Positions 28,038 through 48,064 of a stretch of DNA of 64,000 bases are shown piece by piece. The notes below the pieces were generated by a model, which was not told the DNA's origin, did no database searches, and saw only the letters and a program-made list of their open reading frames with translations. The stretch's first letter is position 1, and each line of letters opens with the position of its first letter. The stretch lies in the NCBI RefSeq assembly GCF_016903815.1, contig NZ_CP069973.1. One strand, given 5' to 3'. The position numbers and the translations under genes were made by a program. Source of the DNA: Escherichia coli. GTDB taxonomy: Bacteria; Pseudomonadota; Gammaproteobacteria; Enterobacterales; Enterobacteriaceae.

Positions 28038-28081
28038 AAATTTCTCCTGTAATAAATTCAACTGTGCTGCGCGTCGTCGGC

Positions 28082-29233: not shown

Positions 29234-29361
29234 AGCGAGCCCACTTGTTTGGGAAGTTTATTCCTATCTTAGGATAGGAACCTGACAAGTGGGCGTAAAC
29301 TATCTTGCGGGCGTGTTGGACTATTTTGCTTTCATTATCGGGCCAATGCAAAATCACGCCA

Positions 29362-30417
29362 TCACCGTGTAATTCCCGGGGACACGACTTTTCGATAATC
29401 AGAGGGGGTCATGCCAGTATCTTTTTTGAAGATGCGGCAAAAATAGTTTGAATCCTGGTATGCCAGTTCCAGCGCAATGGTATTTACTTGTAAGTCACTG
29501 AACCGCAATAACGATTTGGCGATAGTAATTTTACGCGTGGCAATATAGTTCGAAAACCCGAACCCGGTAATTTTCTTAAAGGTACGGCTCAAATAGCAGG
29601 CACTGACAAACGATTTTGCTGCCACGTCATCGAGCGTCAAGTTTCTGAGAATATTTTTCTCAATATGGAATTTCGCTCGTTCGATAAAATCGATATTGCC
29701 TGTATAGCCTTTTAATGCGTAATCAAACAGTTCTTCGCTAATGGTCAGCAGGCTGATCATGATGCGGAAATAGCGGCTTTCCATCATGCCATACTGGTTG
29801 ATGTCTTTGATCAGCGCGGCGACTTTACGGTTAGTCGGCATTAACTTTTCCCCTTTGGCGGTCATATACTGGCTAACTATTTCCAGAAAATCGATCACGT
29901 CTTTGCGCTTATCCTCTTCTATCATATCCACCGGACAGGCACCGTTGATCGTGTCAAAAATAAAGTTGTGCCACTGGGTGTAATCGCAATCGTCTATCAT
30001 GGCGAACACTTTCTGTTTTAGGGCGCGGGATTTTTCATTTTCTCCTTCGTCGAATGCTAGGGTTTTTTTGATGGTGTCGGTCAAGATACATTTTTTCACT
30101 GGTTTGAGCAGATAATCATCCACTTTAAGGTTGTACATGCTGCGTACTATATCAAAGTCATCATTGGCCGTGATTACGATGATTTTAGTATCGCTGTTTT
30201 TTTTCTTCAGATATTCAATCACCTGTTTACCGTTCGGCAACGGAATATTAATATCCACTAAGATCATATTGATTTGACTCAGTTGGTCAATTAAGTGAAT
30301 CGCTTTTTTACCGGTTGAGGCTTCATGGATCGCAGCGTTTTCCACACACTGGGAGATAATCTGCCGCAGGGATTCTAATTCGATGGGCTCATCTTCAACG
30401 ATAACAATGGTAAACAT
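29362..30417 (-). CDS. Response regulator, REC domain plus AraC-type HTH output
   Basis: N-terminal receiver (IVIVEDEP ... LVDINIP) and C-terminal AraC HTH. Confidence 0.8.
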   Translation of the reverse strand: MFTIVIVEDEPIELESLRQIISQCVENAAIHEASTGKKAIHLIDQLSQINMILVDINIPLPNGKQVIEYLKKKNSDTKIIVITANDDFDIVRSMYNLKVDDYLLKPVKKCILTDTIKKTLAFDEGENEKSRALKQKVFAMIDDCDYTQWHNFIFDTINGACPVDMIEEDKRKDVIDFLEIVSQYMTAKGEKLMPTNRKVAALIKDINQYGMMESRYFRIMISLLTISEELFDYALKGYTGNIDFIERAKFHIEKNILRNLTLDDVAAKSFVSACYLSRTFKKITGFGFSNYIATRKITIAKSLLRFSDLQVNTIALELAYQDSNYFCRIFKKDTGMTPSDYRKVVSPGITR

Positions 30418-30433
30418 ATGTCTTTTTCCTGTA

Positions 30434-31696
30434 TCAGGCTTCCTGCATTGGGAACCGAAGTTTAATGGTTGTACCCATCCTGGGTTTGTTAGGGCTCATT
30501 ATTTCCAAGCCATAGCTCTCGCCAAATAACAACTTCAATCTATTTTTTATGTTGTTAATACCAATACTGCCTTTTTGCAATTTTTGGTCGCCTGATAAAA
30601 TGCGATTAATGGTATCTGGTGCGATGCCGTCGCCATTGTCAGTGACTTCAATAATCACGTTCAGGCCATCGTCCGTGGCACGGATCAGCAGATGACTATT
30701 GCTATCCCTTGGCTCCACTACGTAGTTAAAGAAGTTTTCCACCAGCGGTTGCAGGATCAAAAACGGGCAGACTACATCCAGATATTTTTCCGGGATATCG
30801 CACAGGTAATCGAAACGGTCTCTCATACGCACTTTTTGGATCGACATATAGTTGTTGACGTAATTTATTTCATTACGCAGAGTAATCAGGCCGTGACTAT
30901 TTTTACGTAACAAATAGCGCATCATGTCAGAGAAATCGTGCACCATTGTTTCGGTACGCTGCGCATCTTCAAGAAAAGCTAACCGGCCAATGGTATTTAA
31001 TACGTTAAATAAAAAGTGCGGATTTATCTGATAAGAGAGCGCTTTAAATTCAGCTTCATGTAGTGAGCGTTCTATCTCTACACGTTTTCTTAACTCATTA
31101 GCCAGTGCAAGATCCTTTTTACGAAGTTCGCGTTGGATATTATTGGTGTGCGCTTGTTCGACCAGATAAGACGATACGTGTAGTAACGTCGAGGCAGTAG
31201 ACTCAAAACGCTCATACGGCATGCGACGTGTATTCTGGTGCAAATTAATTAACCAAGGATTATCTTTCCAGACGTCATTATTATTCAGAATATAGGAAAT
31301 GCTCTGTTCTTTCTCTTCTTCGACTTTTACCTGACCGGAAATAAAAGCACCGAGATAATGATCGTTAATCATGATTGGGACAGCGAATTCGACAAAACCG
31401 CAGTGGCAGCGATAAACCACCGGTTTGCGAGCGTGCATCGCGGCACGGCCACCAGCGTTGTCGCTTTCATAACAGTGGTGCGCCAGTGTCGGGTTGAGAC
31501 GCGAACGCATGCAGAAGTCTGAAAAACCGCTGGGCTTAGTGACCGGGATACCATTCTCATCCACAACCACGAGCGCGATCATCATTGATTTTGAAAAGTT
31601 GTCCTGCAGGGTCTGAAGGCGTTTTACATCCAAAAACTCATTTAATTTGTATTTATTCTTCATACTTTCAGCCTGCATTTTTAAAAACATAATCAT
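30434..31696 (-). CDS. Sensor histidine kinase with PocR-like sensory domain; start may be a downstream Met (about 31663)
   Basis: His-kinase motifs ([13 protein letters not shown]) and HATPase region; N-terminal domain resembles PocR. Confidence 0.75.
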
Positions 31697-31965
31697 ATAT
31701 TTATAAATAATTTGTCACGAAAAAATTGAAATGGATCACAGCAACAAAAACAGCTCCGGCTCTGAAAGTAATGCTTCGGTTATTTGCAAGGGATACTCCT
31801 TTTCAAACCTTGCTGAACCAGTGCAGATACACAGGGAAACGTATACCAGAACTGCCACAATACAAACGCCAGTTACTGGCGATACGAATGGAATGACGAG
31901 GCAGTCTGTCAGAAAGCCCCACATGAACGATCACCACCTACATAGGAGGTGTTTTAAAATTGATC

Positions 31966-33769
31966 GAGTAGGAGGCGGGATCACTCCCGCCGTCCTCTCA
32001 CACCACCGTACGTGCGGTTCCGCATACGGCGGTTCATGTTAACTCTGGAACTGCCTCTACTGTTCCAGCAGTGATATCAGACCCTGCCTCCTGAACCATG
32101 CATTCTTTATCGCCTGATTCATATGGCTTGACCCTGAGTTCCACCATGGCCCGTGGTTGTTGTACGCAGAGATCATTGCCCTGTCCTTACTCAGTCCTGC
32201 TCTTTGCAGATTCTTTGCCCGGGTTCGCGGTCTCTTCCACTGCCGCTACAACAAGCAACGCAGTTTCCGTTTGATCCAGCCATCCAGCTCCTCCAGCACT
32301 CCTCTGACTTCCGTCAGCCTGAAGTAGCTTATCCATCCACACAGCACTGGTGTCAGAGCATTGATTGTCGCTTTCACTGATTTGCTCCGGTTTCCCGTCG
32401 TCAGACTGTGGACTTTCTCCTTCAGCCTGTTCACGCTCGTCAGGGCTATCTTCAGCTTCGCCTGTTTGTGCCATGTCACACTGTACCCGAGGAACTTCCG
32501 ATCCCACGGGCGCGCCACCGCGCTCTTCTTCTCATTCACCTTCAGTTTGTTCTCCACGAACGCCCTGATGTTCTTCAGCAGATGGTCGCCCGCTTTCCGG
32601 CTGCTTACGTAGATGTTGCAGTCGTCTGCGTAGCGGCAGAAGCTGTGTCCACGACGCTCTAGTTCTTTATCCAGTTCATCCAGCAGGATGTTCGACAGTA
32701 ACGGCGACAGTGGGCCGCCCTGCAGCATGCCCGCCTGCCGTTTCTCCCTTTGCCCGTCTTTAACCATTTCCACTTTCAGGTAGCGGCGTATCAGTCACAG
32801 CACCCGCCTGTCCTTTATCGTTCTGGCCAGACGCGTCATCAGGAGTCTGTGATCCACCCGGTCGAAGAACTTCTCCAGATCCATATCCACCACCCACCGT
32901 TTGCCACCCCGTATGTAACGCTGTGCCTGTTGCACCGCCTGCTGGATAAGCCTGTCCACCACCGTCGGGATGCCTGAGGTTCTCACGCCGCCATCCGGCT
33001 TCGGGATATCCATCCGGCGTATTGCCCGCGGCTGGTAGTTTCCGTCAATCAATGCCTGCCTGACGCTGCGCCAGTTCTTCTTCAGCCACGGTTTCAACTC
33101 CGCCACGCTGAGGTTATCCACCCCCGCCGTGCCTTTGTTTTCCAGCACGCGCTGATAAGCCAGCATCAGGTTTTCTCTCGTTATCACCGCTTCCATCGTC
33201 AGCGGCACTTCCGCTTTCGTTTGCCCACCCGCCGCCGTGCTGATTTCAGCGCCATCATGCAGCCCTGACGGATACTGTCCGTCTCCTCTGCCGCTGGTCG
33301 CAGTTGCCTGCGCTTGTGCTTCATTAATCATCATCGGGTTCGGATGTCCTAATCACAGTTAATCATGTTCGGCCCTTCATGCTGCCGGTTTTGCAGCACT
33401 ACTACGGCGTCGGCTGACTTCTGCCGCCCCATCCCGGCGCCTCACGGCGCCGGTAGCACACTGGCAGGGCGACAGATCTCCCGGGGTAATTCACGTGACT
33501 TTCCTGCTTATGCCTGTCGGCTTTACGTCACAGCGTTCCGTGTGAGTATCGGGCTTTGGTGATTTGTGCCACCTTACCCTGCTGCGCCGCCTTAACCGCT
33601 TCCTGTTCGTCAGGCCAGCATTTTGCATCCAGCTTCCTTCAGATTTCACCTCGCGATGAACACCCTTGCCTTCCGCTAACACTTCCCCTCACCGGGTGTG
33701 TGGAGGACTTTCACCTCTTAGTCGTTCTTCTGCCACCACAGTTGAAGAACAGCGCCAGTCACGGCGCAC
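31966..33769 (-). mobile_element. Degenerate group II intron (class C-like) inserted after a terminator hairpin
   Basis: 5' end GTGCGCC immediately after hairpin 33771..33810; domain V-like CCGTATGCGGAACCGCACGTACGG near 32000; disrupted RT ORF inside. Confidence 0.65.
32246..33334 (-). pseudogene. Group II intron reverse transcriptase, disrupted (in-frame stop, internal deletion, C-terminal truncation)
   Basis: Two abutting ORFs (179 and 175 aa) with RT motifs FCRYADDCNIY and GGPLSPLLSNILLDELD. Confidence 0.8.
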
Positions 33770-33770
33770 A

Positions 33771-33810
33771 TAACAAAAAGCCAGCAGGCAGACACTGCTG
33801 GCTTTTTGTT
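33771..33810 (-). terminator. Rho-independent terminator after the membrane-protein gene
   Basis: AAAAAGCCAGCAG...CTGCTGGCTTTTTGTT hairpin. Confidence 0.7.
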
Positions 33811-33819
33811 ATGGCGGGA

Positions 33820-34725
33820 TTAAAACAGGGGAACCAAGGTAAATAATCCAATGGTCGCCAACAGATTAATCATCGTGGTCATAATGGTGATGACCATCGC
33901 CGGCGGGTCAATATGTGTATCGCCGTGGATCAGGAAGATACGCGACATCAGTTCACCCAATATCGCGCAAATTATGCCAACGATAGCAGCCCAAATCAGG
34001 CTACCTGATGGCACCGCTACCAACGCGGCAGGCAGCGAAATATGATGTGACACCGGTACCTGAGTATTGAAATGCAGGAAAATCAGTGAGAACGCGGAAA
34101 TACCAAACGCCAGCAGCGCGCCGTTGCCGCCAAACTTCAGGCCTAAAAAGCCTGCCATCAAGCCAATACCCAAGCCCAGCACGGAAAGCTGCGGAATGCG
34201 GCTATGGTAAGGTATCCAGCACTTATCCTGCGGCGGATAGCAGTGACGAATTCCCTGCTCCGGTTTTCCAAACAGGCCAGTTTTACCGAAAACCAGACGC
34301 GAGACCACGCCAGAAATCACCACGGTTAGTGCCACGGTATCGGTCCAAGCATTGCCGGACGGGAAGGCCGGAATCTGGTTCAACCCCCAGGCGATGATGT
34401 AACCAACCGCCCCAAAAACCCCGCCTACCAGCAGCACATCGTAAGCCGCCAGACCGCTCAACCCGGCAGTGATATCACGCCCGGAACCCAGCTTGCCTTT
34501 CTTCGCTGCATACGCCGTCGCCGCAACCCCAGCGGCAAAGCCGCCGGTGTGCGGGCCAAACAGTCCAAACGGAAAAGTAATAAAGTCCGATGATGCTCCG
34601 GTAATAATTTGCACTACCGTCATGGCGATAACCAGAAGCCCAACGAATTCAAACGCCGCCAGCGCGCCAACAGCCGCACCAAATATGCCGCCGCCGAAGG
34701 CAACTACAATATCTAAGCTATTCAT
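33820..34725 (-). CDS. Integral membrane protein (putative substrate transporter of the locus)
   Basis: 301-aa highly hydrophobic, Gly/Ala-rich ORF. Confidence 0.6.
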   Translation of the reverse strand: MNSLDIVVAFGGGIFGAAVGALAAFEFVGLLVIAMTVVQIITGASSDFITFPFGLFGPHTGGFAAGVAATAYAAKKGKLGSGRDITAGLSGLAAYDVLLVGGVFGAVGYIIAWGLNQIPAFPSGNAWTDTVALTVVISGVVSRLVFGKTGLFGKPEQGIRHCYPPQDKCWIPYHSRIPQLSVLGLGIGLMAGFLGLKFGGNGALLAFGISAFSLIFLHFNTQVPVSHHISLPAALVAVPSGSLIWAAIVGIICAILGELMSRIFLIHGDTHIDPPAMVITIMTTMINLLATIGLFTLVPLF

Positions 34726-34861
34726 CTAGCTTACCTCTGTAATTAAATCAAATGACAATATAAGTAATGCAGATTGCTCTATATTTTTAAAATTGAAATA
34801 GTATTCATGCGTAACAAATAAACAAGTGCAGCATTTTTTCGCACTCTTATTACATCTTTTA

Positions 34862-35779
34862 TTAACCGCCGATATGGCAGTTAAAACCTAAGGATTCAAC
34901 CATTGCTTTTAACTCTGCCATTTGGGCTTCTTCGATACTTTTTGTATCGCCCATCGGATACTGGCGACCAAGCAGATTATATTTATTTTCACCGAAGCTG
35001 TGATAAGGCAATAAGTGAATGGTATCGACGTTCTGCATCAGGCGGGCGAACTCCGCAATATTATGGATTTCCTGCGAATTGTCATTCACTCCTGGGATCA
35101 CAGGAATACGCACAACCACTTTGGTTAAAAAGGAGATGCGCAGCAGATTCTCCAGAATCACTCTGTTATTCACGCCGGTGTTGCGCTCATGGATTTCCGG
35201 ATCGATGGCTTTAATATCGGTCAGAGCAAGATCGACATAGGGAAATACCTCATCAATCACCGCTTTGGTGGTGAAGCCGCTTGTTTCAATAGCGGTGTGC
35301 CAGCCTTTGGCTTTACAGGCTTTAAGCAACTCGCGGGCAAATTCCGGCTGCGCCAGCGGTTCACCACCGGACAGGGTAATCCCGCCGCCTGAACGCCGGT
35401 ATAAATTCTCTTCTTTTTCCAGTTCGCGCATCACTGCCGTTACCGACATACGCTTGCCCTTCATTTCCAGCGCACGGGTAGGGCAAATCTCAGTACATTT
35501 CCCACACTGAATACAGCGGTCGCGATTGATAAACCAGGCATTAGTAATGGAAAGAGCCTGTTGTGGGCAAGCATCAATACATTTTCCACAGCGGATGCAA
35601 TCATTCTTTTTAAATAATAACTCTGGGCTGTGACGTTGTGATTCAGGATTACTACACCATTTGCAGGACAGCGGGCAGCCTTTAAAAAAAGGAATGGTTC
35701 GAATGCCTGGACCATCATGCAAAGAATAGCGTTGAATATTAAATATGACGCCTTCGGTTTCGTATTCAACTTTATTCAT
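34862..35779 (-). CDS. Glycyl-radical enzyme activating enzyme (radical SAM, with ferredoxin-like insert)
   Basis: CPLSCKWCSNPE radical-SAM motif plus CIRCGKCIDACP and CIQCGKCTEICP clusters. Confidence 0.9.
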   Translation of the reverse strand: MNKVEYETEGVIFNIQRYSLHDGPGIRTIPFFKGCPLSCKWCSNPESQRHSPELLFKKNDCIRCGKCIDACPQQALSITNAWFINRDRCIQCGKCTEICPTRALEMKGKRMSVTAVMRELEKEENLYRRSGGGITLSGGEPLAQPEFARELLKACKAKGWHTAIETSGFTTKAVIDEVFPYVDLALTDIKAIDPEIHERNTGVNNRVILENLLRISFLTKVVVRIPVIPGVNDNSQEIHNIAEFARLMQNVDTIHLLPYHSFGENKYNLLGRQYPMGDTKSIEEAQMAELKAMVESLGFNCHIGG

Positions 35780-35887
35780 AACATCACTCTATATTTACCA
35801 GATGAATTACCTTTTCAGATAAAAGTAACAACCAGAAGTCGTGGAGAAAGTAACGGGCTATATATTGATACATAGCCCGTCTGGTAT

Positions 35888-38440
35888 TTACGACAGTTGT
35901 TGCTCAGTACGGCTGATTATGTCGTCCTGAACTTCTTTCGCTAAAACTACCCACTGGGCGCTATAGCCCGCAACGCGTACCACCAGATCCTGATGTTGCT
36001 CAGGATTTTTCTGGGCTTCGATCAAAGTGTTGCGGTCGATAACGTTAAATTGAACGTGCATCCCTTTCTTATCGAAGTAGTGACGTATCAGGCCGCTGAA
36101 GTTGCGCAGACCGTTCTCGCCAGCCAAAGAAGACGGCAGGAATTTCTGATTATAGAGCGTACCGTTGGAGGCGATAAAGTGATCCAGTTTGGCAACTGAG
36201 TTGGCTGCGGCGGTTGGGCCAAGGGTGTCTTTACCCTGACGTGGAGATACGCCATCCGCCAACGGCTCTTTCGCCAGACGGCCATCCGGCAGTGCGGCAA
36301 CGTCTTTACCAAACAGCACGTTCGCAGACACCGGATAGATACCAGCCTGGAACTGGCCACCGCGCGGGTTGGTATATTTCTCAACTTCCTGGCAGTAGAT
36401 CAGCGCACATTTACGCGCTACTAAATCCACGTCATCGATGTCGTTACCGAAGCACGGTGTGTTTTCCAGAATACGACGGATCTCCTCGTGACGGGACATA
36501 GTGCCGGATTGCACCGGTGCTGCACTGCCGGAAGTCAGCTGGCGATAAACTTCGTTTTTAATCGCTGCCGGATCCAGAGCGCCATGCTGTTCAATGATGC
36601 GTTTCACCACATCGTAGATATCCTGCTCGTTGAGCGAGGATTTCGCCGCTGGAGTGTGCGGGTTCGCACCCACCGGATAACCGAAGTTGGCGTCCAGTGC
36701 GCTTTTCAGTTCGCTCAAAGACAGTTTACGATCTTCGAATACCTGTTTCTGGATGGCATAGACGGAGTCGCCGGTATCGGCTACGCCGAATGCTTGCGGC
36801 CCAGTAAAGTTGTAAATCGCCCCGCCTTCCTGGAGAGATTTACCACGGCCGATACAGTCGTCGACCAGTGCTGATAGGAACGGCAGCGGGCAGCGTTCGC
36901 CGTGGGCAATATCCACGCTGTTACAGGCTTCAACCAGTTGATGAACGAAGTGCGCCATCTGTTTCTGGAACGCGGTGTAGAAGTCCTCCATGCTGGTGAA
37001 CTGAGTCAGTTCGCCAGTCACTGGGCCTAGCTGTTTATTGCCAACGCGACCGTTGTTCAGGGTGATTTCCAGCACTTTTGCAACGTTAAAGAACGCGGCG
37101 TCATGCCAGCCCTCGGTGCGATGCGGTGCCTGCGGCTCTACGCAGCCGATGATACAGTAATCACGCGCATCACGCAGCGAAATGCCACGGTTCTGCAGCG
37201 CCGGGATGATTACTTCATCGTTGTACATTGCCGGAACGCCCAGGCCCATACGCACCAGCTCGCAAGCGCGATACAGAAACTCATCCGGAGTACCCTGCCA
37301 TACGCGGATTGAGAAGGATGGCTGCGGCAGACGCACATGGGCAGTCGCTTCCATACACATGTAGCTCAGATCGTTAGTTGCGTCGCGACCGTCTTCTGTC
37401 TGGCCGCCACAGCACAGGTTCTGGAACACTGCGTAACCGGCAAACGCCTGGGCAGAGACTTCGTCACGCGTTTTGTTAATGTCGTTAAGCTTGATCCAGC
37501 AGCAATCCACCAGTTCCTGCGCGAATTCACGCGAGATAGATTTGTCCGACTCCAGATACGGGTACATATACTGGTCGAAACGCCCCGGGGAGATAGAATG
37601 ACCGCTGGATTCAATCTGTAACATGCTCTGAATAAACCAGAATGTCTGGCATGCTTCCCAGAATGTGGTAGCACCGTATTCCGGCACGCGAGTACAGTTT
37701 TGAGCAATCTGCTCCAGTTCGCGTTTACGGGTCGGATTGCTCTCCTGCTGCGCCAGACGGGATGCTTCTTCAGCGTAACGATGGGCGAAACGGATCGCTG
37801 CGTTATAACTGATCAGCACCGCATTATAGAACTGTTCTTTCTTTATATATCCTGGTTCAGTGCGATCTAATGATTCCAAGGCACGGCTAACTTCATTAAT
37901 GATACCACGGAAACCAATTTTCAGCACTTTACCGTAGTCAACACTGACATGACCGACGCCCCCGAAGAAGTAGTTACCAACAGTGAATACACCGCTCGCC
38001 ATACTCTCTTTAGTGCCTTCTGACATGTAAGATGCCGCCAGAGCACTGGTAGTTTTACCCGGCCAGTATTTAAATGCTTCATGAAGCTCCTGAGCAGTCT
38101 TTTTCGGGATAACAAACGGGTCGGCAATACGGTGTTCCATAGTCTCAAACTCTTTTTCCACCCAGTCGTAGGAGAACTCAGGGCAGATTTCAGTTGAGCG
38201 AGGATTAATAGTTACCGCTCCAACGATTAATTCGTCTGGGCGAATTGTTACCGGTAATTGGTTAAAGATTTTTTCCACCACTTTAGCACGACGCATAATC
38301 GCGGGCAGTTGTTCTGTTTCTTTATATGCTTCGGTTGCTAACACCGCGCGTTCTGATTCCACATACGGCTTCGCCGTCAGGATCATATTTCTCAGTCTTA
38401 CAACACGGTCTGTCGGATTAGAAAAGCCTTTCTCTAACAT
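35888..38440 (-). CDS. Glycyl radical enzyme (PFL-like), 850 aa, probable 1,2-propanediol dehydratase-type
   Basis: C-terminal glycine-radical motif RVAGYSAQWV and catalytic loop GCVEP; substrate is inferred from locus type. Confidence 0.85.
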   Translation of the reverse strand: MLEKGFSNPTDRVVRLRNMILTAKPYVESERAVLATEAYKETEQLPAIMRRAKVVEKIFNQLPVTIRPDELIVGAVTINPRSTEICPEFSYDWVEKEFETMEHRIADPFVIPKKTAQELHEAFKYWPGKTTSALAASYMSEGTKESMASGVFTVGNYFFGGVGHVSVDYGKVLKIGFRGIINEVSRALESLDRTEPGYIKKEQFYNAVLISYNAAIRFAHRYAEEASRLAQQESNPTRKRELEQIAQNCTRVPEYGATTFWEACQTFWFIQSMLQIESSGHSISPGRFDQYMYPYLESDKSISREFAQELVDCCWIKLNDINKTRDEVSAQAFAGYAVFQNLCCGGQTEDGRDATNDLSYMCMEATAHVRLPQPSFSIRVWQGTPDEFLYRACELVRMGLGVPAMYNDEVIIPALQNRGISLRDARDYCIIGCVEPQAPHRTEGWHDAAFFNVAKVLEITLNNGRVGNKQLGPVTGELTQFTSMEDFYTAFQKQMAHFVHQLVEACNSVDIAHGERCPLPFLSALVDDCIGRGKSLQEGGAIYNFTGPQAFGVADTGDSVYAIQKQVFEDRKLSLSELKSALDANFGYPVGANPHTPAAKSSLNEQDIYDVVKRIIEQHGALDPAAIKNEVYRQLTSGSAAPVQSGTMSRHEEIRRILENTPCFGNDIDDVDLVARKCALIYCQEVEKYTNPRGGQFQAGIYPVSANVLFGKDVAALPDGRLAKEPLADGVSPRQGKDTLGPTAAANSVAKLDHFIASNGTLYNQKFLPSSLAGENGLRNFSGLIRHYFDKKGMHVQFNVIDRNTLIEAQKNPEQHQDLVVRVAGYSAQWVVLAKEVQDDIISRTEQQLS

Positions 38441-38488
38441 ATAAAACTCCCGAATATATTTTGTTAACCTTGCGGAGATGCCAGGGTA

Positions 38489-39064
38489 TTAATGAATAAT
38501 GCTAGTGCCCATTTGAGTAATAAAGTGACGTAATATTGCTGGATGCCCCATCCAGGTAGTCGCGGTTATTAAATTACCATCCACAATGGCTTCATCATCT
38601 GCGGCAGTGACCCACTGGCCACCCGCCATTTCCACTTCCGGTTTTACCGTAAAATATCCCGTCAGTTTCCGGCCTTTTAATACCCCAGCAGCGGCCAGAA
38701 TTTGTGGGCCATGACAAATTGCAGCAACAGGTAATGTTAAATTCATCGCGTAATGCACGATATCCAATACTGACTTATTTAATCGCAAGTATTCCGATGA
38801 ACGCCCACCAGAAATATAAACACCACTATATTCCTGTAACCTTATGTCATCAAATGATGCAGTTAATCTAAAAAGATGTCCGGGTTTTTCGGTGTAGGTC
38901 TGATCACCTTCAAAATCATGAATCGCGGTTTTAATAAACTCGCCGGTACGTTTTCCCGGACACACTACATCCACTCTGAAACCTAACATGTTTAATGCCT
39001 GCCATGGCACCATGACTTCATAGTCTTCAGAGAAATCGCCTGTGATAAGTAATATCTTCTTCAT
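38489..39064 (-). CDS. DJ-1/PfpI-family protein
   Basis: Nucleophile-elbow motif AICHGPQIL; start at internal Met MKKILLITGD. Confidence 0.7.
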   Translation of the reverse strand: MKKILLITGDFSEDYEVMVPWQALNMLGFRVDVVCPGKRTGEFIKTAIHDFEGDQTYTEKPGHLFRLTASFDDIRLQEYSGVYISGGRSSEYLRLNKSVLDIVHYAMNLTLPVAAICHGPQILAAAGVLKGRKLTGYFTVKPEVEMAGGQWVTAADDEAIVDGNLITATTWMGHPAILRHFITQMGTSIIH

Positions 39065-39074
39065 AAGCGGACTC

Positions 39075-39374
39075 TCAAAACTGGTTATCGTCTTCCTCAA
39101 TGATTCGCATGGCTTCATGCACCGCCGCGACTTCGCCAAAAATGGCCAATGTGGTGATATGCTGAGGGCAACTGCCAAAGATTTCTGATACCACCACATT
39201 GGCGCTTTTACTGGCTACGTCGGCATAAAAATAGAGATCCGGAACCGGCAGTATTAACAAACCAATGGCGTCGATGCGAATCAAATCCAAACGCGAACGA
39301 AACTCCCCGGGCATACGCCGTTTCAACATAGCCAAAATATCCGGGGTCGGTGCGTTTATGATTCGTTTTTTCAT
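39075..39374 (-). CDS. EutS/PduU-type permuted BMC shell protein, GrpU-like, with GSCPQ motif
   Basis: Permuted BMC pattern similar to EutS; GxCPQ motif associated with Fe-S binding in GrpU. Confidence 0.7.
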   Translation of the reverse strand: MKKRIINAPTPDILAMLKRRMPGEFRSRLDLIRIDAIGLLILPVPDLYFYADVASKSANVVVSEIFGSCPQHITTLAIFGEVAAVHEAMRIIEEDDNQF

Positions 39375-39397
39375 CTTTAAGTCACCCTTCGCGATAG

Positions 39398-40915
39398 TTA
39401 GCGAATATTCAGCGCTTCAACCATTACACAGCGACGACGGCGTGCAAACGAACGCGCTGACGTAAGTCCCTCGCCGGTCGGTCCGGCAATCGTAAAGGTG
39501 GCATGCCCTTCACCGCCCACCCCCAGCCCTGCATAAGAGGGACCATTTTTAACAAAGATGGTGGTCTGGATCAGGCGCGCCATTTTGGTCAGCTTTTCGA
39601 CGTTGGTGGAGTGCATAACCGCGGTATGACGATTGCCGTGCTCCACTTTCACCGCCAGCTCAATGGCTTCATCAACATTGTCTACGCGCACCACCGGCAG
39701 GACCGGCATCATCAGCTCATGCACCACAAACGGATGTGTTTTCTCAGCCTCAATTAAGATGACTTTGATATCGTCGCCAACCTGGATTCCCAGTTGTTGC
39801 AGGATATAGCGCGCATCTTTGCCGACAAAGGCGGTATTCGGCCCAGTGCCTTTTTCATTAAGCACCAACGATTGCAGTTGTTGACTTAACTTCTTATCGC
39901 ACAACAGATAGGCACCGCTTTTCTTCATGCAGTGAATCAGATAGTCCGCTACCTGGTTCACAACAATCACCTCTTTTTCCGCCACGCACGGCAGGTTGTT
40001 GTCGAAGCTACAGCCCTTAATGATGTCGCGGGCTGCTTTTTCGATATCCGCCGTTTCATCTACCACAGCTGGCGGGTTACCTGCGCCTGCACCAATCGCT
40101 TTTTTACCTGATGACATCACGGTTTTCACGATGGCTGGACCGCCAGTCGCTACCAGCATGTTGATACGTGGGTCGTTGATCAGGACGTTGGTATTGTCGA
40201 TGGACGGTTTGGTCACCGTTACCACCATGTTAGCCGGTGCGCCCAACTGGGCAAGCTTGTTGTTGATCAGCTCAACCGCGTACAGCGACACTTTGCGCGA
40301 GCGCGGATGTGGACTGAACACCACAGTGTTGCCTGCCGCCAGCATGCCTATGCTGTTGTTGATAATGGTTTCGGTCGGGTTAGTCGTTGGTGTAATCGAA
40401 CCAATCACTCCGAACGCAGAGTATTCGATCAACGTTAAACCCCCGTCTCCGGAAACCGCGCTGGTGGTCAGATCTTCGATACCTGGCGTTTTCAGCGCTG
40501 CGACGCGGTTTTTGATCAGTTTGTCCTCGTAATTCCCCATGCCGGTCTCTTCCACCGCCATACGGGAAAGGGCACACAGCACATCTTCCTGCAGGAAGAC
40601 ATCGCGAATGCCATTGATAAACGAGGCGCGGTCTTGCATAGAACAGTGGCGATACTGCACTTGTGCCAAGACGGCGGCGGAAATCGCCTCATCCATGGTA
40701 TCGAATGCTCCAGTGCTAGCATTCGCTACCTTCGCTACCTGAGAGATCGCACTGGCGTCGCGCACGGAAGAGTGCTGCGCCAACGCCTTAGCGACAATTT
40801 CATCCAACCCGTCGACCCGCGCTGCTTCTGACGTGGCGGGAGCTTCATCCGGTGTTGCTTTGGTGAATTTGCTCAGAATGGTCGAGACAGCCTGAGCGAT
40901 TTCAATATCATTCAT
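39398..40915 (-). CDS. CoA-acylating aldehyde dehydrogenase (PduP/EutE family)
   Basis: 505-aa aldehyde dehydrogenase-like sequence with N-terminal extension typical of encapsulation peptides. Confidence 0.85.
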   Translation of the reverse strand: MNDIEIAQAVSTILSKFTKATPDEAPATSEAARVDGLDEIVAKALAQHSSVRDASAISQVAKVANASTGAFDTMDEAISAAVLAQVQYRHCSMQDRASFINGIRDVFLQEDVLCALSRMAVEETGMGNYEDKLIKNRVAALKTPGIEDLTTSAVSGDGGLTLIEYSAFGVIGSITPTTNPTETIINNSIGMLAAGNTVVFSPHPRSRKVSLYAVELINNKLAQLGAPANMVVTVTKPSIDNTNVLINDPRINMLVATGGPAIVKTVMSSGKKAIGAGAGNPPAVVDETADIEKAARDIIKGCSFDNNLPCVAEKEVIVVNQVADYLIHCMKKSGAYLLCDKKLSQQLQSLVLNEKGTGPNTAFVGKDARYILQQLGIQVGDDIKVILIEAEKTHPFVVHELMMPVLPVVRVDNVDEAIELAVKVEHGNRHTAVMHSTNVEKLTKMARLIQTTIFVKNGPSYAGLGVGGEGHATFTIAGPTGEGLTSARSFARRRRCVMVEALNIR

Positions 40916-40975
40916 CTTTAAATTCCTTACTACTCTTCATCTGCCGACCGCGCCGCGTGCATCGTCATCAGATGC

Positions 40976-41761
40976 TTAGATATATGGCGTCGTGGTGGAT
41001 TTAATTTCCACCGGATCTAACGTGGAGAGCAGTTGTAGACCGACTTCACGCGCGGCAATCACCGCCTGACGTACTGCACCGGAATCACCGGAGAAGGTGA
41101 AGATCACTTCGTTACTAAAGCTGGTGCCTTGCGACGGGCTGGCATAACCCACCGGGTCAATCACGGCGGATTTCGCCGCAGCGTCGGCAATCACCAGGCC
41201 AATCGCCGCAGGCGAGGCACAGGTCATCCCGAAGGATTTACCAATCGGCGCACCCAGCGCTTTATTCAGCGCGTAGCTGGCACGAGCGGTGTACTGGAAT
41301 TCAAGATGTCCGGCTGACGAGCCATAAACGTCACCCATGGTGCGTTCAATTTCAGACAGCGCCACTTCAACCGCACGCCTGACGTCGGAAACATCAGACG
41401 CACCGAAAATAATTAAGCAACCGTGTCCGCCACCTCCTTCGGTATCGCGGGCCAGCTCAATAGAAATAATTTCGCTGTTGGTTGCTTTAATCGCTTCGTC
41501 AGCCGCAAAAATTTGCGGGCCTGCGCCAGTACGTGCGCCAAGAATACCGATAGAGCGATATTTCTTGTCGATATTCATGACTTCATGCAATTGATTATCA
41601 ACATTGGCAATCACTAGGCCGATAGTGTGGCCCAACGCAGTGCCGACAAATTCCGTAATACCGCAACCAGCGAAATTCGCTGCTGTTTTAGCTTCCGGTG
41701 AGATATCGGTTTGTTTATTCATTACGTCAGATATAATCTGCTCAACAAGATTATCTCTCAT
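40976..41761 (-). CDS. Tandem-BMC-domain shell protein (BMC-T, PduB-like)
   Basis: 261-aa protein with PduB-like N-terminus MRDNLVEQIISDV. Confidence 0.75.
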   Translation of the reverse strand: MRDNLVEQIISDVMNKQTDISPEAKTAANFAGCGITEFVGTALGHTIGLVIANVDNQLHEVMNIDKKYRSIGILGARTGAGPQIFAADEAIKATNSEIISIELARDTEGGGGHGCLIIFGASDVSDVRRAVEVALSEIERTMGDVYGSSAGHLEFQYTARASYALNKALGAPIGKSFGMTCASPAAIGLVIADAAAKSAVIDPVGYASPSQGTSFSNEVIFTFSGDSGAVRQAVIAAREVGLQLLSTLDPVEIKSTTTPYI

Positions 41762-41782
41762 GATCAGTATCCTTTATTGTTA

Positions 41783-42064
41783 TTAACCGATAGCCTTCGG
41801 TAGAATTTTTTCCACCTCAATGTGTGGGCGTGGAATAACATGTACGGAGACCAGTTCTCCCACTTTACTCGCAGCAGCGGAGCCCGCATCTGTCGCGGCT
41901 TTCACTGCGCCAACGTCGCCGCGAACCATCACAGTCACCAAGCCGGAGCCGATTTTTTCATAACCCACTAGGGTCACGTTGGCAGATTTCACCATGGTAT
42001 CTGCAGCTTCAATTGCAGAAACCAGACCTTTCGTTTCAACCATTCCTAATGCTTCTTGTTGCAT
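41783..42064 (-). CDS. BMC-H shell protein (PduA/PduJ-like)
   Basis: [45 protein letters not shown] canonical BMC domain; start at internal Met. Confidence 0.9.
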
Positions 42065-42348
42065 AACGACCTCAATATTTCCGATAGAAAGAAAACGTGC
42101 ACAGAGGAATAGCAATCTACGGATTCACCCATGTGCATTAATTATTTAATTATCATAATGCTAAGGTTATTCAGACAAAATGTTTTGCGCGTCAGTGGGA
42201 CTATCTTGCTTTTGCATTCCCGCAATTGACAATAAAATCCACCCGAGGTTTGTAATAAAAGATCTGCGTTTAAACTTCCTTGCAAAATAGCCCCGCTCTG
42301 AATAGCGATCATAATTACTGTTAAAACTGTCGTATTTTTGCCAATTAG

Positions 42349-43545
42349 TTATGCCGTGCGGGCAATCTCCGCTGCATCTATAGCAATCATTTTTTCTTCA
42401 TTGGTTGGGATGACCGCAATCTTCGTGGTGTCGGTTTTAGAAATCAGTCCGCTACGTCCGCCGAACAGCTGCTGGTTACGTTCTTTATCCAGTTCCAATC
42501 CCAGCGCCTGAAGGCGTTGCACGGTAAGTTCTCGAATTAACGCCGAGTTTTCGCCAATTCCACCGGTGAAAATCAGCGCATCGAAGCGTTTAAGCGAGGT
42601 CACGTGGCCGCCGATATGTCGTGCGAGACGATGTACTAACACGTCGATGGCTAACGCTGCCCGTTCGTGGCCCTCATCACGCGCCTGCTGAAGGGTGCGG
42701 CAATCGCTGGATAAGCCGGAAATCCCCATTAGGCCGGACTGGTTATTGAGCATTTTGTACAGCGTGTCGAATGTTTGACCTGTGCGTTTCGCCAGATATG
42801 CGACGACACCAAAATCAAGATCCCCGCAGCGCGTGCCCATTACCAGCCCTTCCAGCGGGGTCATACCCATTGAGGTGTCAATGCTCGTGCCGTTTTGCAC
42901 CGCACATAGCGATGAACCGTTGCCCAAGTGGGCAATCACGATGCCATGATCCGCCGGGTCGAGATCTAGTGATGCAAGCGCTTCTGCGGCAATATAGCGG
43001 TGAGATGTTCCGTGAAAGCCGTAACGTCGCACCATATAATCTTGCTGGAACTCCAGCGGGATCGCATAGGTGTAAGCAGCCGGAGACAAGGTCTGGTGGA
43101 ACGCAGTATCGAACACCGCAATATGCGGCAACGCGGGCAACAGAGCCCGAGCCGCTTCAATACCAATCAGGTTGGCAGGGTTATGCAAAGGGGCCAGCAC
43201 CGACAGCGCGCGGACTTTTTCGATCACATCATCGGTAACCAGTACTGATCTTTTGAAGTCGCTGCCGCCATGAGCCACGCGGTGCCCAACGGCGTTGATG
43301 GCTTCCAACAGTTGCTGTTCGTCGAGCTTCGCGAAGAGCACTTTGAGCGCATGCTGATGGCTGGCGTCATCCAGCGCGACAGTGGATTTATGGCCGTCTC
43401 GGTCTTTAAACGTTATGACAGCATGATCAATACCCAGTCGTTCCGCTAGGCCCGACAGCAACGGCTGATCTGCATCCTGAGGAATGACGGAGAATTTCAT
43501 TGATGAGGAACCACAATTAATCACTAATACACAAGCTAAAGACAT
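42349..43545 (-). CDS. Acetate/propionate kinase (AckA/PduW family)
   Basis: VLVINCGSSSMKFSV N-terminal motif; start codon at 43543..43545. Confidence 0.85.
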   Translation of the reverse strand: MSLACVLVINCGSSSMKFSVIPQDADQPLLSGLAERLGIDHAVITFKDRDGHKSTVALDDASHQHALKVLFAKLDEQQLLEAINAVGHRVAHGGSDFKRSVLVTDDVIEKVRALSVLAPLHNPANLIGIEAARALLPALPHIAVFDTAFHQTLSPAAYTYAIPLEFQQDYMVRRYGFHGTSHRYIAAEALASLDLDPADHGIVIAHLGNGSSLCAVQNGTSIDTSMGMTPLEGLVMGTRCGDLDFGVVAYLAKRTGQTFDTLYKMLNNQSGLMGISGLSSDCRTLQQARDEGHERAALAIDVLVHRLARHIGGHVTSLKRFDALIFTGGIGENSALIRELTVQRLQALGLELDKERNQQLFGGRSGLISKTDTTKIAVIPTNEEKMIAIDAAEIARTA

Positions 43546-43573
43546 GATGCCCCCTGAAATGGACTGCAAAAAA

Positions 43574-44071
43574 TTAACGGGTTGTTGTGAGGGGATAACG
43601 CAGAACGCTAAACTGCGCCATCGCCTGGCGGGCGATGAGCATATCTTCCTCAACACTGCCGCCGCTGATGCCGATGCCGCCTAGTAAGCGCCTGCCCGAC
43701 CAGCAGGGAAAACCACCGCCGAAGCAGCAGATATCTTTTTCTTTCTCAAGGCCGTACAAATCACCACCCGGCTGTACCAGCGTTGCCAGTTCGTGAGTTG
43801 GCATTTTGAGAGCTACCGCGGTCCAGGCCTTTTGTGGTGCCAAGGTATGGCTGACCAGCAGGGCGTTATCCATGCTGAAGAAAAAACGCTGCTGACCGCA
43901 GGCATCCACTAGGCTAAAAACGATCGATACATTGCTGGACTGTGCCATTTCCCGGGCCAACTTTGCCAGCAGTTCACTGTCCTCCAGGCTCAGCGACATC
44001 CGGAGTTCCGGTAACTGCGTGGCAATAGCCTCATTAATCCAGTTGTCGAGTGAAGCCTCATTCGCAGACAT
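43574..44071 (-). CDS. GlcG/HbpS-like (DUF336, PduO C-terminal domain-like) protein
   Basis: 165-aa ORF with GGIGISGG motif. Confidence 0.6.
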   Translation of the reverse strand: MSANEASLDNWINEAIATQLPELRMSLSLEDSELLAKLAREMAQSSNVSIVFSLVDACGQQRFFFSMDNALLVSHTLAPQKAWTAVALKMPTHELATLVQPGGDLYGLEKEKDICCFGGGFPCWSGRRLLGGIGISGGSVEEDMLIARQAMAQFSVLRYPLTTTR

Positions 44072-44098
44072 AAGTATTCCTCAGCGTACGCGCCGCTA

Positions 44099-44368
44099 TT
44101 AACCGTTAAGTTCGAGCGTGTCGACGATACCCACCACGGCAGCGTCAATCACCGAGTGATCTTTGTTGTTGCTCATACGCGCCGAACTGCCGGTGGTGAT
44201 GATCACAATCTCTCCATTGCCCGCGCCGACAGTATCAACTGCCACCTGGGCATGGACAGTCGGCTGATAGTTTTCATCGAGCCGCGCCACTATCAGCAGT
44301 TTTGAGCCATTCAGCGAGGCGTGTTTGGTGGTGGAAACCAATGCGCCAGTAACTTTAGCGAGGTACAT
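44099..44368 (-). CDS. BMC vertex protein (BMC-P, EutN/PduN/CcmL family)
   Basis: MYLAKVTGALVSTTKHASLNGSKLLIV... matches the EutN/PduN pattern. Confidence 0.85.
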   Translation of the reverse strand: MYLAKVTGALVSTTKHASLNGSKLLIVARLDENYQPTVHAQVAVDTVGAGNGEIVIITTGSSARMSNNKDHSVIDAAVVGIVDTLELNG

Positions 44369-44379
44369 ATTTCCTCCGG

Positions 44380-45105
44380 TTAACCATGGATAACAGTGAG
44401 ATTACGCCGCTGGATTTCATCTCTGGCAGCAGGGGTAATCAGCGTGTCGCTCTCAATGCGCAGCACTGTGCCAATGGTCAGTAGGCGGATATCGCTCTGG
44501 GTGATTAAACGTTTTTTACCGGCTACTGTCAGGGTGGATTGGCTTCCTTGCACCGACTTGACATGGGCTGCACGTTTACCGAAAAGCGTAATGCCATAGC
44601 TCTCTAGGACCTGAGCGTAACCTTCCAGACAAGACAGCAGTGGCATCGGTAATTCGCTATCGACGCATTGTTGATGCAGCGTGGCGATAATCTGTTTACG
44701 GTGCTGTAACGCCTGAAATACAGTTTCACAGGCCAGATTATCGCGAATGCCCAGCGCAATTTTGCTCATGCTGTTGACAGAGAGCGCAGGCAGATAGAGC
44801 ACCTCATAGTGAGGCGGCGATCTGTCAAATCCAGCACGAGAACCACGCTGAATTAGCGCATCCATGCAGACAGATTTCAGCGCCGACTGGCTGGCGCTGT
44901 GAGAAAAATTTACCCACAACTGATAGCCCGCCAGCTCAAGCGCCTCAAGGCAGTTCAGCGTTTCCGGCAGCGAGGAGATATCCTCACCAGTCACCACTAC
45001 GCAGACATTTTTCTGCGCGACGGATTGTGCCAACACTTCAGCGATGACCCGGTCCAGCAGTTGCGATAAGGTTTGATTGTCCATTGATTTACCCCTGGTC
45101 CGCAT
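44380..45105 (-). CDS. Microcompartment-locus protein of unrecognised family (241 aa); alternative start at 45084
   Basis: ORF inside the operon between the eutJ-like and vertex genes; no motif recognised. Confidence 0.55.
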   Translation of the reverse strand: MRTRGKSMDNQTLSQLLDRVIAEVLAQSVAQKNVCVVVTGEDISSLPETLNCLEALELAGYQLWVNFSHSASQSALKSVCMDALIQRGSRAGFDRSPPHYEVLYLPALSVNSMSKIALGIRDNLACETVFQALQHRKQIIATLHQQCVDSELPMPLLSCLEGYAQVLESYGITLFGKRAAHVKSVQGSQSTLTVAGKKRLITQSDIRLLTIGTVLRIESDTLITPAARDEIQRRNLTVIHG

Positions 45106-45909
45106 TCATGGCGATGCCTAATGGTGTGACCAATAGTGGCTCTGCCGAAGGAATCACATTTTTACCGGTTTGTTTACTGAACACGTTGGCAAACTGGCTG
45201 AAGCTGCTCGCGCCACCTACCAAATAAATATTTTTTACCTGCTGGGTAGCGAACCATCCCGACACCAAGCTGGCCATTTTCTGGGCCACCGGTAGCACCA
45301 GGGTAAAGACCTGCGCTTCCTGCCCGTTTTTTTTCATTTCTTCCGCCTCGGCATAAGGCAAGCCCAGCGCGCCAGCGATCACCAACTTCATATGGCTTCC
45401 ACCGGTGGGCTCATCGGCACTGAACGTCACTTTACCGCTTTTCAAAATGCTCATGCCGGTGGTGCCTCCTCCGACATCCACCACCGCCCCGTTTTTAATA
45501 TTCAGCGCGCTGGCAGCGGCTACCGGTTCATCTAGTACTTGGGTCACGATAAAACCCGCCAACTCCACTACGTTGACGATCACTTTTGTGTTGCCTTCAG
45601 AGATCCCCGGTGGGACTGCGATCGCCGCGCGCTCCAGCGTGCAGCCCTGTTTCTGTTCAAGAATTTGTTTGAGACGTGCTACTACCCGGCTGGCGGTCAG
45701 GTAATCCACCACCACGCCGTCTTTCACCACATTGGAGGGATACATTACCCCTGCCACCGGCTGGTTATCTTCATCCAGCACCACGATTGCGATATTGGCG
45801 GTACCGAGATCCCCCCCACCTTCAACGCGCCGGAGTAGGGCCGACATTCGCCGCTGTCAATCAGCGCGGCCAATTCGTGAAATCGGCAGTTTTCGGGGCT
45901 GTTAGCCAT
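45089..45909 (-). CDS. EutJ-like actin-fold (Hsp70-type) protein with an apparent frameshift at a 7-nt C run (45811..45817)
   Basis: ORF from 45847 starts at the DLGT phosphate-binding motif; an ATG at 45909 in another frame encodes ...ALKVGG, which would precede DLGT after a 1-nt shift. Confidence 0.6.
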
Positions 45910-46588
45910 GGCGCGCAGCCTGTTTTATGCCGCGAACGGTATCGCCATTACGCAGACCGACGCCGTTAGCTTCTTCCATATCAATATGCAGTTCCAGCAC
46001 TGCATCCGCCGTGACGCGTACCACTACATGGCTGAGCACACCACCGCGCGGACCGTTTGTTTGCACATCGATTTCCATTCCGTCATGCAGGCCGTGCAAT
46101 TCGGCTTCTTCGGGCGAGATATGGATATGGCGCCAGGCGACAATCATGCCGTTGTGTTTCACCACCCGCCCTTTCGGACCGATGATTTCAATGCCCGGCG
46201 AATCCAGCAGATCCCCCGACATGCGCACCGGAGCTTTAGTGCCCAGCGCAAAGCCGTCGGCCACAGAGATTTCCACCTGCGTGGCATTACGCAGTGGCCC
46301 TAACACGCGCACTTTGTTGAGCTCGCCTTTTGGCCCGCGCAGCGTCACCATCTCTTCGGCGGCATACTGACCGGGCTGTTTCAACGCTTTAGAACGGGTT
46401 AGCGTAGAGCCGTAGCCAAACAGAATGTCCATATCTTCACGGCACAGATGAACATGGCGGTTGGACACGCCCACCGGAATATTCAGCGCGACGGGCGCGG
46501 CAGCAGGCGCTGCCGTTTTTTTACTGGTGGCAAGTTCCTGCAAAATTTGTTGGGTAATCCACTCGGCTTGTTGTTCGGTGTAATTCAT
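45902..46588 (-). CDS. Phosphotransacylase, PduL type
   Basis: GVSNRHVHL ... ALKQPGQYAAEE ... AWRHIHISPEEA motifs. Confidence 0.85.
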   Translation of the reverse strand: MNYTEQQAEWITQQILQELATSKKTAAPAAAPVALNIPVGVSNRHVHLCREDMDILFGYGSTLTRSKALKQPGQYAAEEMVTLRGPKGELNKVRVLGPLRNATQVEISVADGFALGTKAPVRMSGDLLDSPGIEIIGPKGRVVKHNGMIVAWRHIHISPEEAELHGLHDGMEIDVQTNGPRGGVLSHVVVRVTADAVLELHIDMEEANGVGLRNGDTVRGIKQAARHG

Positions 46589-46727
46589 AATGGGTACGAC
46601 CTGATTATTGGGTTATCTTATGGGTAATGGGCGTCTAACGATCAGGATAGGGAGTAACGACGCCCGGTTTTTGTTTATCAGCAGGACTTTTTTGACTGCT
46701 TCACGGAGGCTGAACAAAGTTATCCAG

Positions 46728-47846
46728 CTAGCCGGTAATCAGGTCGATCAACCCTTCGACATCATGCGTCGTCACCTGCCGCGGGTTCGACGCGGTACAA
46801 CCGTCGGCCAGCGTCGAATTCACCAGTGCGCTGCGCAACTCGATGATTTTTGCACGGTCGATACCCAGTTCGCTGAGAGTGACGGGGATGCAGAAATGGC
46901 GATTGATCTGGCGGATCTCCTGAGTCATCAGCGCGATGGCCTGCTCCGGTACCGCATGGTCAATGCCTATGATTTGCGCGCAACGGTGATAGCGATCGCG
47001 GGTTTCAGTGCTGGCCCGTTTGCTGTTGAAGTCGATGACAATCGGCAGCAGCATGGCGTTAATTTTGCCATGAGGAATATGCAGCATCCCGCCGATGGCG
47101 TGTGCCATGCCGTGTACCAACCCCAGCCCGGCGGAGTTAAATGCCATGCCTGCCATACAGGAGGCATTGTGCATGTGGGTGCGCGCCGCAATGTCTTTTT
47201 CGTCGTTAAACACCTGCGGCAGATAGCGCCAGGTCAACGCGATGGCTTTTTCCGCCAGCGCATCGCTAAAGTCATTTGAGCCAGTAGAGACAAAGGCTTC
47301 AATGGCATGGGTCAGCACGTCCATGCCGGTATCTACCGCGACATGACGCGGCGCGGTTAACACTAGGTTAGGATCGAGAATGGCGATTTCCGGCACCAGT
47401 TGCCCGGAGATCAACGGATATTTGCGGCCATTTTGCGGATCAGAGATGATCGCGTAGGACGTCACTTCAGAGCCGGATCCGCTGGTTGTGGGAATAGCAA
47501 TGAGATCGATTTGATGATCTCCAAAATACTCTTCCAATGTGACTTTAATTCCTTTCGCAGCGTCCAGCGACGAGCCGCCGCCGAGGGCGATAATAACGTC
47601 GGGCTTAAAGGCTTTAAAACGCGCCGCGCCGGAAGTCAGAATATCAATATCTGGATCCGGAGTAACCTCGCCGAAAATGCATACCGATGCCTCAGGCATA
47701 TGGCTTATTAAATAACGAGTTTTACCTGATGACATCATAAAATCATCGGTGACAATACCGACTCGTTTATTATTAAATTGGCATAGAGAGGTTATTGCCT
47801 CTTCACCAAAATAAATTTTGGGGCACGAAAAATAATAGCGGGCCAT
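46728..47846 (-). CDS. Iron-containing alcohol dehydrogenase (PduQ/EutG-like), first gene of the operon
   Basis: GGGSSLDAAK and His-rich metal site (HGMAHAIGGMLHIPHG). Confidence 0.85.
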   Translation of the reverse strand: MARYYFSCPKIYFGEEAITSLCQFNNKRVGIVTDDFMMSSGKTRYLISHMPEASVCIFGEVTPDPDIDILTSGAARFKAFKPDVIIALGGGSSLDAAKGIKVTLEEYFGDHQIDLIAIPTTSGSGSEVTSYAIISDPQNGRKYPLISGQLVPEIAILDPNLVLTAPRHVAVDTGMDVLTHAIEAFVSTGSNDFSDALAEKAIALTWRYLPQVFNDEKDIAARTHMHNASCMAGMAFNSAGLGLVHGMAHAIGGMLHIPHGKINAMLLPIVIDFNSKRASTETRDRYHRCAQIIGIDHAVPEQAIALMTQEIRQINRHFCIPVTLSELGIDRAKIIELRSALVNSTLADGCTASNPRQVTTHDVEGLIDLITG

Positions 47847-48064
47847 GTGTAACTACCTTAATCATGGTAAACGACCAAATTTGATGTCGTTAACCTAACA
47901 TGGCGATTTTTTTAATGGACTGAGGATGTTTGTGCAGGTGAAGGATTATTTTGCGGTATTGTTTTGCCTTGAGCAAAAAAGTCCTTTTCTAGGAAATACC
48001 TAAAATCTGATACAGTCAAACTCAATATTTATTGTCAGAGAATGAATAAAAGCGGGGTGTTTTT

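Follow-up and report, generated by a model that had tools for sequence, protein, structure and literature searches.

The window, a 64,000-nucleotide stretch of Escherichia coli DNA, carries a co-directional series of genes named grpA to grpS (Table 1). Within this series grpK lies together with the genes for a glycyl-radical enzyme (GRE) and its activase, four other shell proteins, an acylating aldehyde dehydrogenase, a phosphotransacylase and an alcohol dehydrogenase, all on the same strand. The content fits the GRM3b pattern, in which GrpU is found in 53 of 55 loci (PMC6325248). Pfam scans found neither PduS nor PduT in the grp locus, and no product matching PF01512, RnfC_N or SLBB, so that GrpK is the sole grp shell protein with an evident redox cofactor site; Isc and Suf genes are likewise absent from the locus. 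The grp locus of E. coli CFT073 has the same gene set, the same names grpA to grpS and five shell proteins, and no difference from the locus described here was found; it was genetically characterised in 2020 (PMC11626177, PMC11724981, PMC13210347).

Table 1. Features of the grp locus and of grpK, with positions in the window
Feature	Position (strand)	Description
grpA-grpS locus	27492..47846 (-)	co-directional; RefSeq annotation and Pfam scans of the window ORFs agree
grpS	27492-28037 (-)	shell protein: BMC-H with a long tail
grpN	34862..35779 (-)	activase; PF04055 radical SAM; Fer4, 2 stretches = two ferredoxin-type 4Fe-4S motifs
grpM	35888..38440 (-)	glycyl-radical diol dehydratase (signature enzyme); PF02901 (PFL-like) and PF01228 (Gly_radical)
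grpL	38489..39064 (-)	DJ-1/PfpI-family; PF01965; immediately downstream of grpK
grpK	39075..39374 (-)	intact ORF, ATG start, 99 aa
Pore motif codons, G67-S-C-P-Q-H72	39159..39176 (-)	in the model, part of loop 66-74, which joins strands 60-65 and 75-80
GSCPQ	39162-39176 (-)	residues 67-71
TGC codon, Cys69	39168..39170 (-)	single cysteine of GrpK; presumed Fe-S ligand, six per hexamer
Shine-Dalgarno-like AAGGGTGA	39382..39389 (-)	7 nt upstream of the grpK ATG and 8 nt past the grpJ stop; read from the sequence
grpJ	39398..40915 (-)	acylating aldehyde dehydrogenase; PF00171; immediately upstream of grpK
grpI	40976-41761 (-)	shell protein: two BMC stretches
grpH	41783-42064 (-)	shell protein: BMC-H
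grpE	44099-44368 (-)	shell protein: EutN-type vertex
grpD	44380..45105 (-)	flavoprotein; PF02441
grpB, grpA, grpG		in the grp locus; phosphotransacylase, Fe alcohol dehydrogenase and kinase, respectively (Pfam)
grpR, grpC, grpF		in the grp locus; SAM synthetase, EutJ-like and HbpS-like, respectively (Pfam)
grpP, grpQ		in the grp locus; PocR-type sensor kinase and AraC-type response regulator (Pfam)

Two minor features of the operon deserve mention. A gap of 284 nt (42065-42348) separates grpH from grpG in an otherwise tight operon and could accommodate an internal promoter or a processing site. Between grpO and grpP, at 32246-33334 on the minus strand, two adjacent ORFs correspond to the halves of a group II intron reverse transcriptase/maturase, one with the C-terminal part of RVT_1 plus GIIM and the other with the N-terminal part of RVT_1, an arrangement suggestive of an intron ORF that has been split or has decayed within the locus. 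Together with grpA to grpS, these halves may make up the '21 genes' quoted for the CFT073 cluster (PMC13210347).

RefSeq names the product of grpK 'propanediol utilization system shell hexameric protein GrpK' (WP_000746009.1; translation MKKRIINAPTPDILAMLKRRMPGEFRSRLDLIRIDAIGLLILPVPDLYFYADVASKSANVVVSEIFGSCPQHITTLAIFGEVAAVHEAMRIIEEDDNQF). NCBIfam holds no GrpK-specific model, and its sole match to the protein, eut_PduT, is sub-threshold at 14 bits against a cutoff of 250; the RefSeq name therefore does not derive from an HMM in NCBIfam. Pfam recognises one BMC domain (PF00936) in residues 42-94, with 27.5 bits against a cutoff of 24.5. A 236-aa ORF that runs over the 3′ end of grpK (38489-39199, minus strand) was considered as a gene in its own right and rejected, being grpL with a spurious upstream ATG; the annotated grpL product has 191 aa and starts at 39064, 10 nt past the grpK stop.

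An earlier, sequence-only reading of this stretch had singled out the interval 39075-39374 as encoding a GrpU-like, permuted shell protein with a GSCPQ motif; its coordinates coincide exactly with the minus-strand ORF, and its motif with residues 67-71. A six-frame search of the whole window finds the pattern G.CPQ once, and composition leads one to expect 0.56 occurrences over all frames, or about 4e-4 per 99-aa protein. It is homology that identifies GSCPQ as more than a chance match, since it stands in residue-for-residue register with the two crystallised GrpU proteins: GSCPQH in GrpK corresponds to GSCPQH in 4OLP and to GSCPQN in 4OLO, in keeping with the hallmark pore motif of GrpU, G-X-C-P-Q-N/H (PMC6325248). 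In a phmmer search of solved structures, 4OLP_A ('GrpU microcompartment shell protein') matches GrpK over residues 1-99 with an E-value of 1.4e-48, and 4OLO_A over residues 1-95 with 1.8e-12, which bears out the proposed GrpU-like identity. From these structure matches and the motif register it follows that GrpK is the E. coli GrpU ortholog under another gene letter, an assignment that we regard as practically certain. The identification is correct and already known: the family has been on record since 2014 (Thompson et al., J Mol Biol 426:3287) and the E. coli grp locus since 2020 (Lundin et al., J Bacteriol 202:e00017-20).

Across an alignment of 55 diverse members of the GrpU family, reaching down to 25% identity, four columns alone are invariant (K56, G67, C69 and G80), while D52, V60, P70, Q71 and V85 are conserved to at least 90%; that G67, C69, P70 and Q71 are invariant or nearly so at such distances speaks for strong selection on the pore loop. 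The pattern x-x-C-P-Q is present in 59 of 70 representatives of 50%-identity clusters, and G.CPQH in 96 of 106 close homologs, which UniRef names 'BMC circularly permuted domain-containing protein'; the close homologs without it are mostly truncated- or frameshifted-looking fragments. Two copies from insect symbionts (the P0095/P0013 pair) have altered motifs: that of Candidatus Malihini olakiniferum reads FSYPQH, with the cysteine lost, 89 aa and an altered N-terminus, and that of Symbiopectobacterium reads SSCPQH, with the cysteine kept. These changes are consistent with decay of function in reduced genomes.

Within E. coli, grpK is present in 538 of 5426 complete genomes (9.9%), with at least 99% identity in 535 of them, and the 3-kb stretch around the gene, found in 539 of the 5426, is 100% identical to that of strain 7/2 and many other strains. 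This frequency is near the '>10% of ECOR strains' given for the grp locus in a published account (PMC13210347). One of the 538 copies (H21) lies at 28767-29066 of NZ_CP173464.1, a 64.9-kb record counted as a plasmid.

AlphaFold returned a pLDDT of 53 for the single sequence without alignment, and a pLDDT of 92 with a pTM of 0.85 when given the 55-sequence alignment. The elements of the latter model (E3-7, H11-19, H23-29, E36-41, H44-57, E60-65, loop 66-74, E75-80, H82-98) follow the order b-a-a-b-a-b-loop-b-a. Relative to the canonical BMC domain, the final strand and helix have been relocated to the N-terminal end, the arrangement that defines BMC-H(p) (PMC8217296). Among PDB matches to the model, Foldseek ranks 4OLP (TM 0.91-0.94 on target, rmsd 1.3-1.5) and 4OLO highest, and every later match is a permuted BMC domain: 5HPN (an engineered, circularly permuted PduA), CsoS1D, the circularly permuted HO BMC-H 6NLU, EutL, EutS and CcmP. 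When the GrpU profile was aligned with a doubled GrpH sequence, the core alone was significant, and the GrpU N-terminus fell on GrpH 73-88 at -3.3 bits; as the latter match is not significant, the case for permutation rests on structure. The 'permuted BMC shell protein' of the sequence-only reading agrees with both the element order and the Foldseek matches, and GrpK is, as modelled, a single, circularly permuted BMC domain.

Alignment with the GrpU-family profile locates the cysteine with respect to the pore. Against GrpH, the canonical hexamer of the same locus, G67 of GrpK falls on G39 of the KIGSG pore loop and S-C-P forms an insertion in that loop, while D52 and K56 pair with D22 and K26 of GrpH. 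Canonical BMC hexamers tile by means of an edge motif, D-x-x-x-K; since the conserved D52-x-x-x-K56 falls on it, GrpK should tile into shell facets, judging from this correspondence. Against PDB sequences, the profile's 'GsCPq' lies on 'tiCPgk' of PduT domain 1 (3PAC) and on 'pvCPgk' of 3NWG, and PduT-type proteins are its best matches outside GrpU (3NWG, E 1.5e-9). Counted along the 3PAC alignment, C69-P70 of GrpK corresponds to Cys38-Pro39 of native PduT; Cys38 we take to be a [4Fe-4S] ligand, and Pang et al. 2011 reportedly assigned this role to the cysteine at that position. Cys69 is thus found inside the pore motif in the alignments with both crystallised GrpU proteins, GrpH and PduT, as had been proposed, and alignment and model together place it in the loop predicted to form the central pore.

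GrpK can be compared with three known kinds of shell protein. With GrpU from Pectobacterium wasabiae (4OLP) and Clostridiales bacterium 1_7_47FAA (4OLO) it shares length, full-length collinearity, GSCPQH/N, the permuted fold and a GRM locus, and the few substitutions that set it apart from 4OLP all lie outside residues 56-84, the segment surrounding the motif. GrpK shows all the defining features of GrpU that can be tested computationally. PduT and other BMC-T(SE) proteins (3PAC, 3N79, 3NWG) resemble it in having an Fe-S cluster at the pore of the tile (in GrpK a putative one, by orthology), in the aligned C-P and in a proposed electron transfer across the shell (PMC6325248, PMC11626177). However, PduT consists of two non-permuted BMC domains in tandem, assembles into trimers with three pore cysteines, has a midpoint potential quoted as +99 mV (PMC6325248) and pairs with PduS/MNdh, whereas GrpK is a single permuted domain that, by orthology, would form hexamers with six pore cysteines, in a locus without PduS. 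The possibility that GrpK is itself a PduT/BMC-T(SE) protein was accordingly rejected, on the grounds of its 99 aa with one BMC domain and of the missing PduS. The likeness of the GrpU and PduT Fe-S pore loops could reflect either common descent or convergence. PduU and EutS (3CGI, 3I96, 4AXI) are likewise single-domain, circularly permuted BMC hexamers and give weak profile and structural matches, but both the GxCPQ motif and a pore cysteine are missing from them, and they are remote from GrpK (E-values of 5e-4 for 4AXI and 5e-3 for 3CGI with the family profile, and of 0.17 for 4AXI when the GrpK sequence alone was the query).

Both recombinant GrpU orthologs, from Pectobacterium and Clostridiales, have a broad absorbance at ~420 nm 'initially following purification', which is abolished by mutation of the pore cysteine, and the cluster is O2-sensitive (PMC6325248). 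The GrpU crystals were apo, with a polymorphic or disordered pore loop that was not resolved (PMC6325248); the 4OLP and 4OLO entries, released 2014-07-30, are ligand-free, and the 4OLP chains resolve 80-87 of 107 residues. The type of cluster and its ligation have therefore been modelled rather than seen. The spectroscopy covers Pectobacterium and Clostridiales GrpU, while E. coli GrpK is known from its sequence, and the literature searched, gene-name searches included, yielded no experiment on it. The function of GrpU has been called 'an open question', with the family being found 'almost exclusively' in glycyl-radical loci and common in strict anaerobes, and GRM2 compartments working without an accessory Fe-S protein (PMC6325248). 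A later source credits two proposals to Thompson et al. 2014, namely electron transport across the shell for generation of the glycyl radical, and transport of Fe-S clusters (PMC7593272).

We propose that grpK encodes a minor shell protein of a glycyl-radical 1,2-propanediol microcompartment. By orthology to 4OLP and 4OLO, its homohexamer would gather six Cys69 side chains at the pore, and these would hold an Fe-S cluster, oxygen-labile and probably of the [4Fe-4S] type, at a point of broken six-fold symmetry. The cluster would plug the pore to metabolites while letting single electrons cross the shell. Most likely it would serve to pass low-potential electrons from a cytosolic flavodoxin or ferredoxin, or from GrpD as a candidate redox partner, to the encapsulated activase GrpN as the putative acceptor, which would then generate or regenerate the glycyl radical on GrpM inside the compartment. 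A redox role is favoured by the three Fe-S motifs of GrpN and by the co-encoded flavoprotein GrpD and dedicated SAM synthetase GrpR. The sequence-only reading had also inferred electron transfer across the shell from the motif; the part of that claim concerning the pore cysteine and the Fe-S cluster stands, the latter in the orthologs, while electron transfer is a hypothesis taken from the literature (PMC6325248).

We give GrpK as a GrpU ortholog with an Fe-S pore feeding the activase a probability of roughly three in four as the best explanation. Binding of an Fe-S cluster by GrpK in vivo appears probable by analogy with the orthologs, and an inward supply of electrons to the activase as its main role is put forward tentatively, at somewhat worse than even odds. 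In the analogous PduS/PduT pair electrons have been measured to run outward, from NADH via FMN and Fe-S to the Fe-S of the shell tile and the outside (PMC11626177), which weakens the inward-flow reading for GrpK.

The main rival keeps the same identity and Fe-S pore and reverses the flow, with GrpK carrying electrons out of the lumen to an acceptor in the cytosol, from NADH via GrpD for instance, and so aiding NAD+ recycling inside. Besides the outward route of MNdh/BMC-T(SE), it can draw on the discussion of PF02441 proteins as possible electron acceptors or partners in BMC loci (PMC11626177), on the presence of such a flavoprotein in the E. coli locus, and on two distant GrpU homologs encoded two genes from PduS-like genes. 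We nevertheless consider it unlikely for E. coli, whose locus has no PduS/MNdh, includes an alcohol dehydrogenase of its own (GrpA) for recycling NAD+ and offers no identified NADH-binding partner of GrpK. The other explanations rank below it. The cluster could be a redox- or oxygen-sensitive plug or gate rather than a wire, the holo form closing the pore and loss of the cluster to O2 altering permeability or marking damage; the oxygen sensitivity of the GrpU cluster and the polymorphic or disordered apo loop (PMC6325248) would suit such a device in a facultative anaerobe like E. coli, but no data tie the state of the cluster to permeability, and O2 gating would be of little use in the strict anaerobes in which the family is common (PMC6325248), so that gating seems improbable.

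It is less probable still that GrpK stores Fe-S clusters or hands whole clusters to the encapsulated activase for repair. This is one of the two proposals attributed to Thompson et al. 2014 in PMC7593272, and the three Fe-S motifs of GrpN would give it a client, yet GrpK has one cysteine per subunit and no scaffold- or carrier-like features, and the locus lacks Isc and Suf genes. Finally, the recombinant cluster could be an artefact of over-expression, with GrpK binding no Fe-S in vivo and acting as a minor structural or closed-pore tile. The evidence for occupancy is the broad 420-nm feature seen 'initially following purification' (PMC6325248), and one further consideration points the same way. 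The near-invariance of G67, C69, P70 and Q71 down to 25% identity argues against an artefact. So does the position of the C-P pair, which in PduT presumably holds a cluster ligand, and we rate this explanation the slimmest of those considered. The further consideration in its favour, which also speaks against our preferred explanation, comes from Lundin et al. 2020: among the shell genes, deletion of grpE, grpH and grpI only reportedly abolished 1,2-PD catabolism, which would imply that grpK is dispensable in laboratory growth.

The E. coli GrpU ortholog, in a genetically tractable, 1,2-propanediol-induced locus, is a convenient test bed for the function of the cluster, in which feeding the activase, exporting reducing power and gating the pore are to be distinguished.

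The genomic contexts of distant homologs, a small and uneven sample with several contigs too short to judge, fit a redox role for the GrpU family. Two members (P0122 and P0136) are encoded in the order GrpU, EutN-type vertex, PduS-like NADH dehydrogenase (L003 269-2198; L008 630-2568), the PduS-like genes carrying Complex1_51K, RnfC_N and Fer4_17 on contigs too short to show whether PduT is present; GrpU might there work for the NADH dehydrogenase, either replacing PduT or acting next to it. Another (P0124, L009) lies near a ferredoxin-like gene and a BMC-H gene. A fourth (P0109, GNCPQH, about 39% identical) occurs at L004 8001-8306 and at L005 5638-5943, a B12-type diol-dehydratase locus. Its neighbours there encode a diol-dehydratase reactivase, a cobalamin adenosyltransferase, an aldehyde dehydrogenase and a member of the Dehydratase_MU family (PF02288). 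The 14-16 kb of each of these loci show no glycyl-radical enzyme, a hint that GrpU-type proteins are not wholly confined to glycyl-radical loci. A pair of genes for an EutJ-like protein and a PF02441 flavoprotein is common to E. coli (grpC/grpD) and to L004 and L005. That hexamers with a GrpU-type Cys pore constitute a general redox port of microcompartments, beyond the glycyl-radical ones and with GrpD as the partner in E. coli, is a speculative extension that we think doubtful.

The flanks of the grp locus (1-27000 and 48000-64000) form a mosaic island adjoining cadBC. One flank carries genes of CP4-like type, with a CbtA toxin (4673-5050), a YeeU-family antitoxin (5140-5508), antirestriction, DUF932 and JAB-domain genes; the other holds fragments of IS2, IS3 and IS30, type VI secretion remnants and a PAPS-reductase plus IbrB-like pair (~56124-57979). 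At 61276-62784 on the plus strand, amid IS3 and IS30 fragments, lies an apparently intact ltrA, encoding a group II intron reverse transcriptase/maturase.
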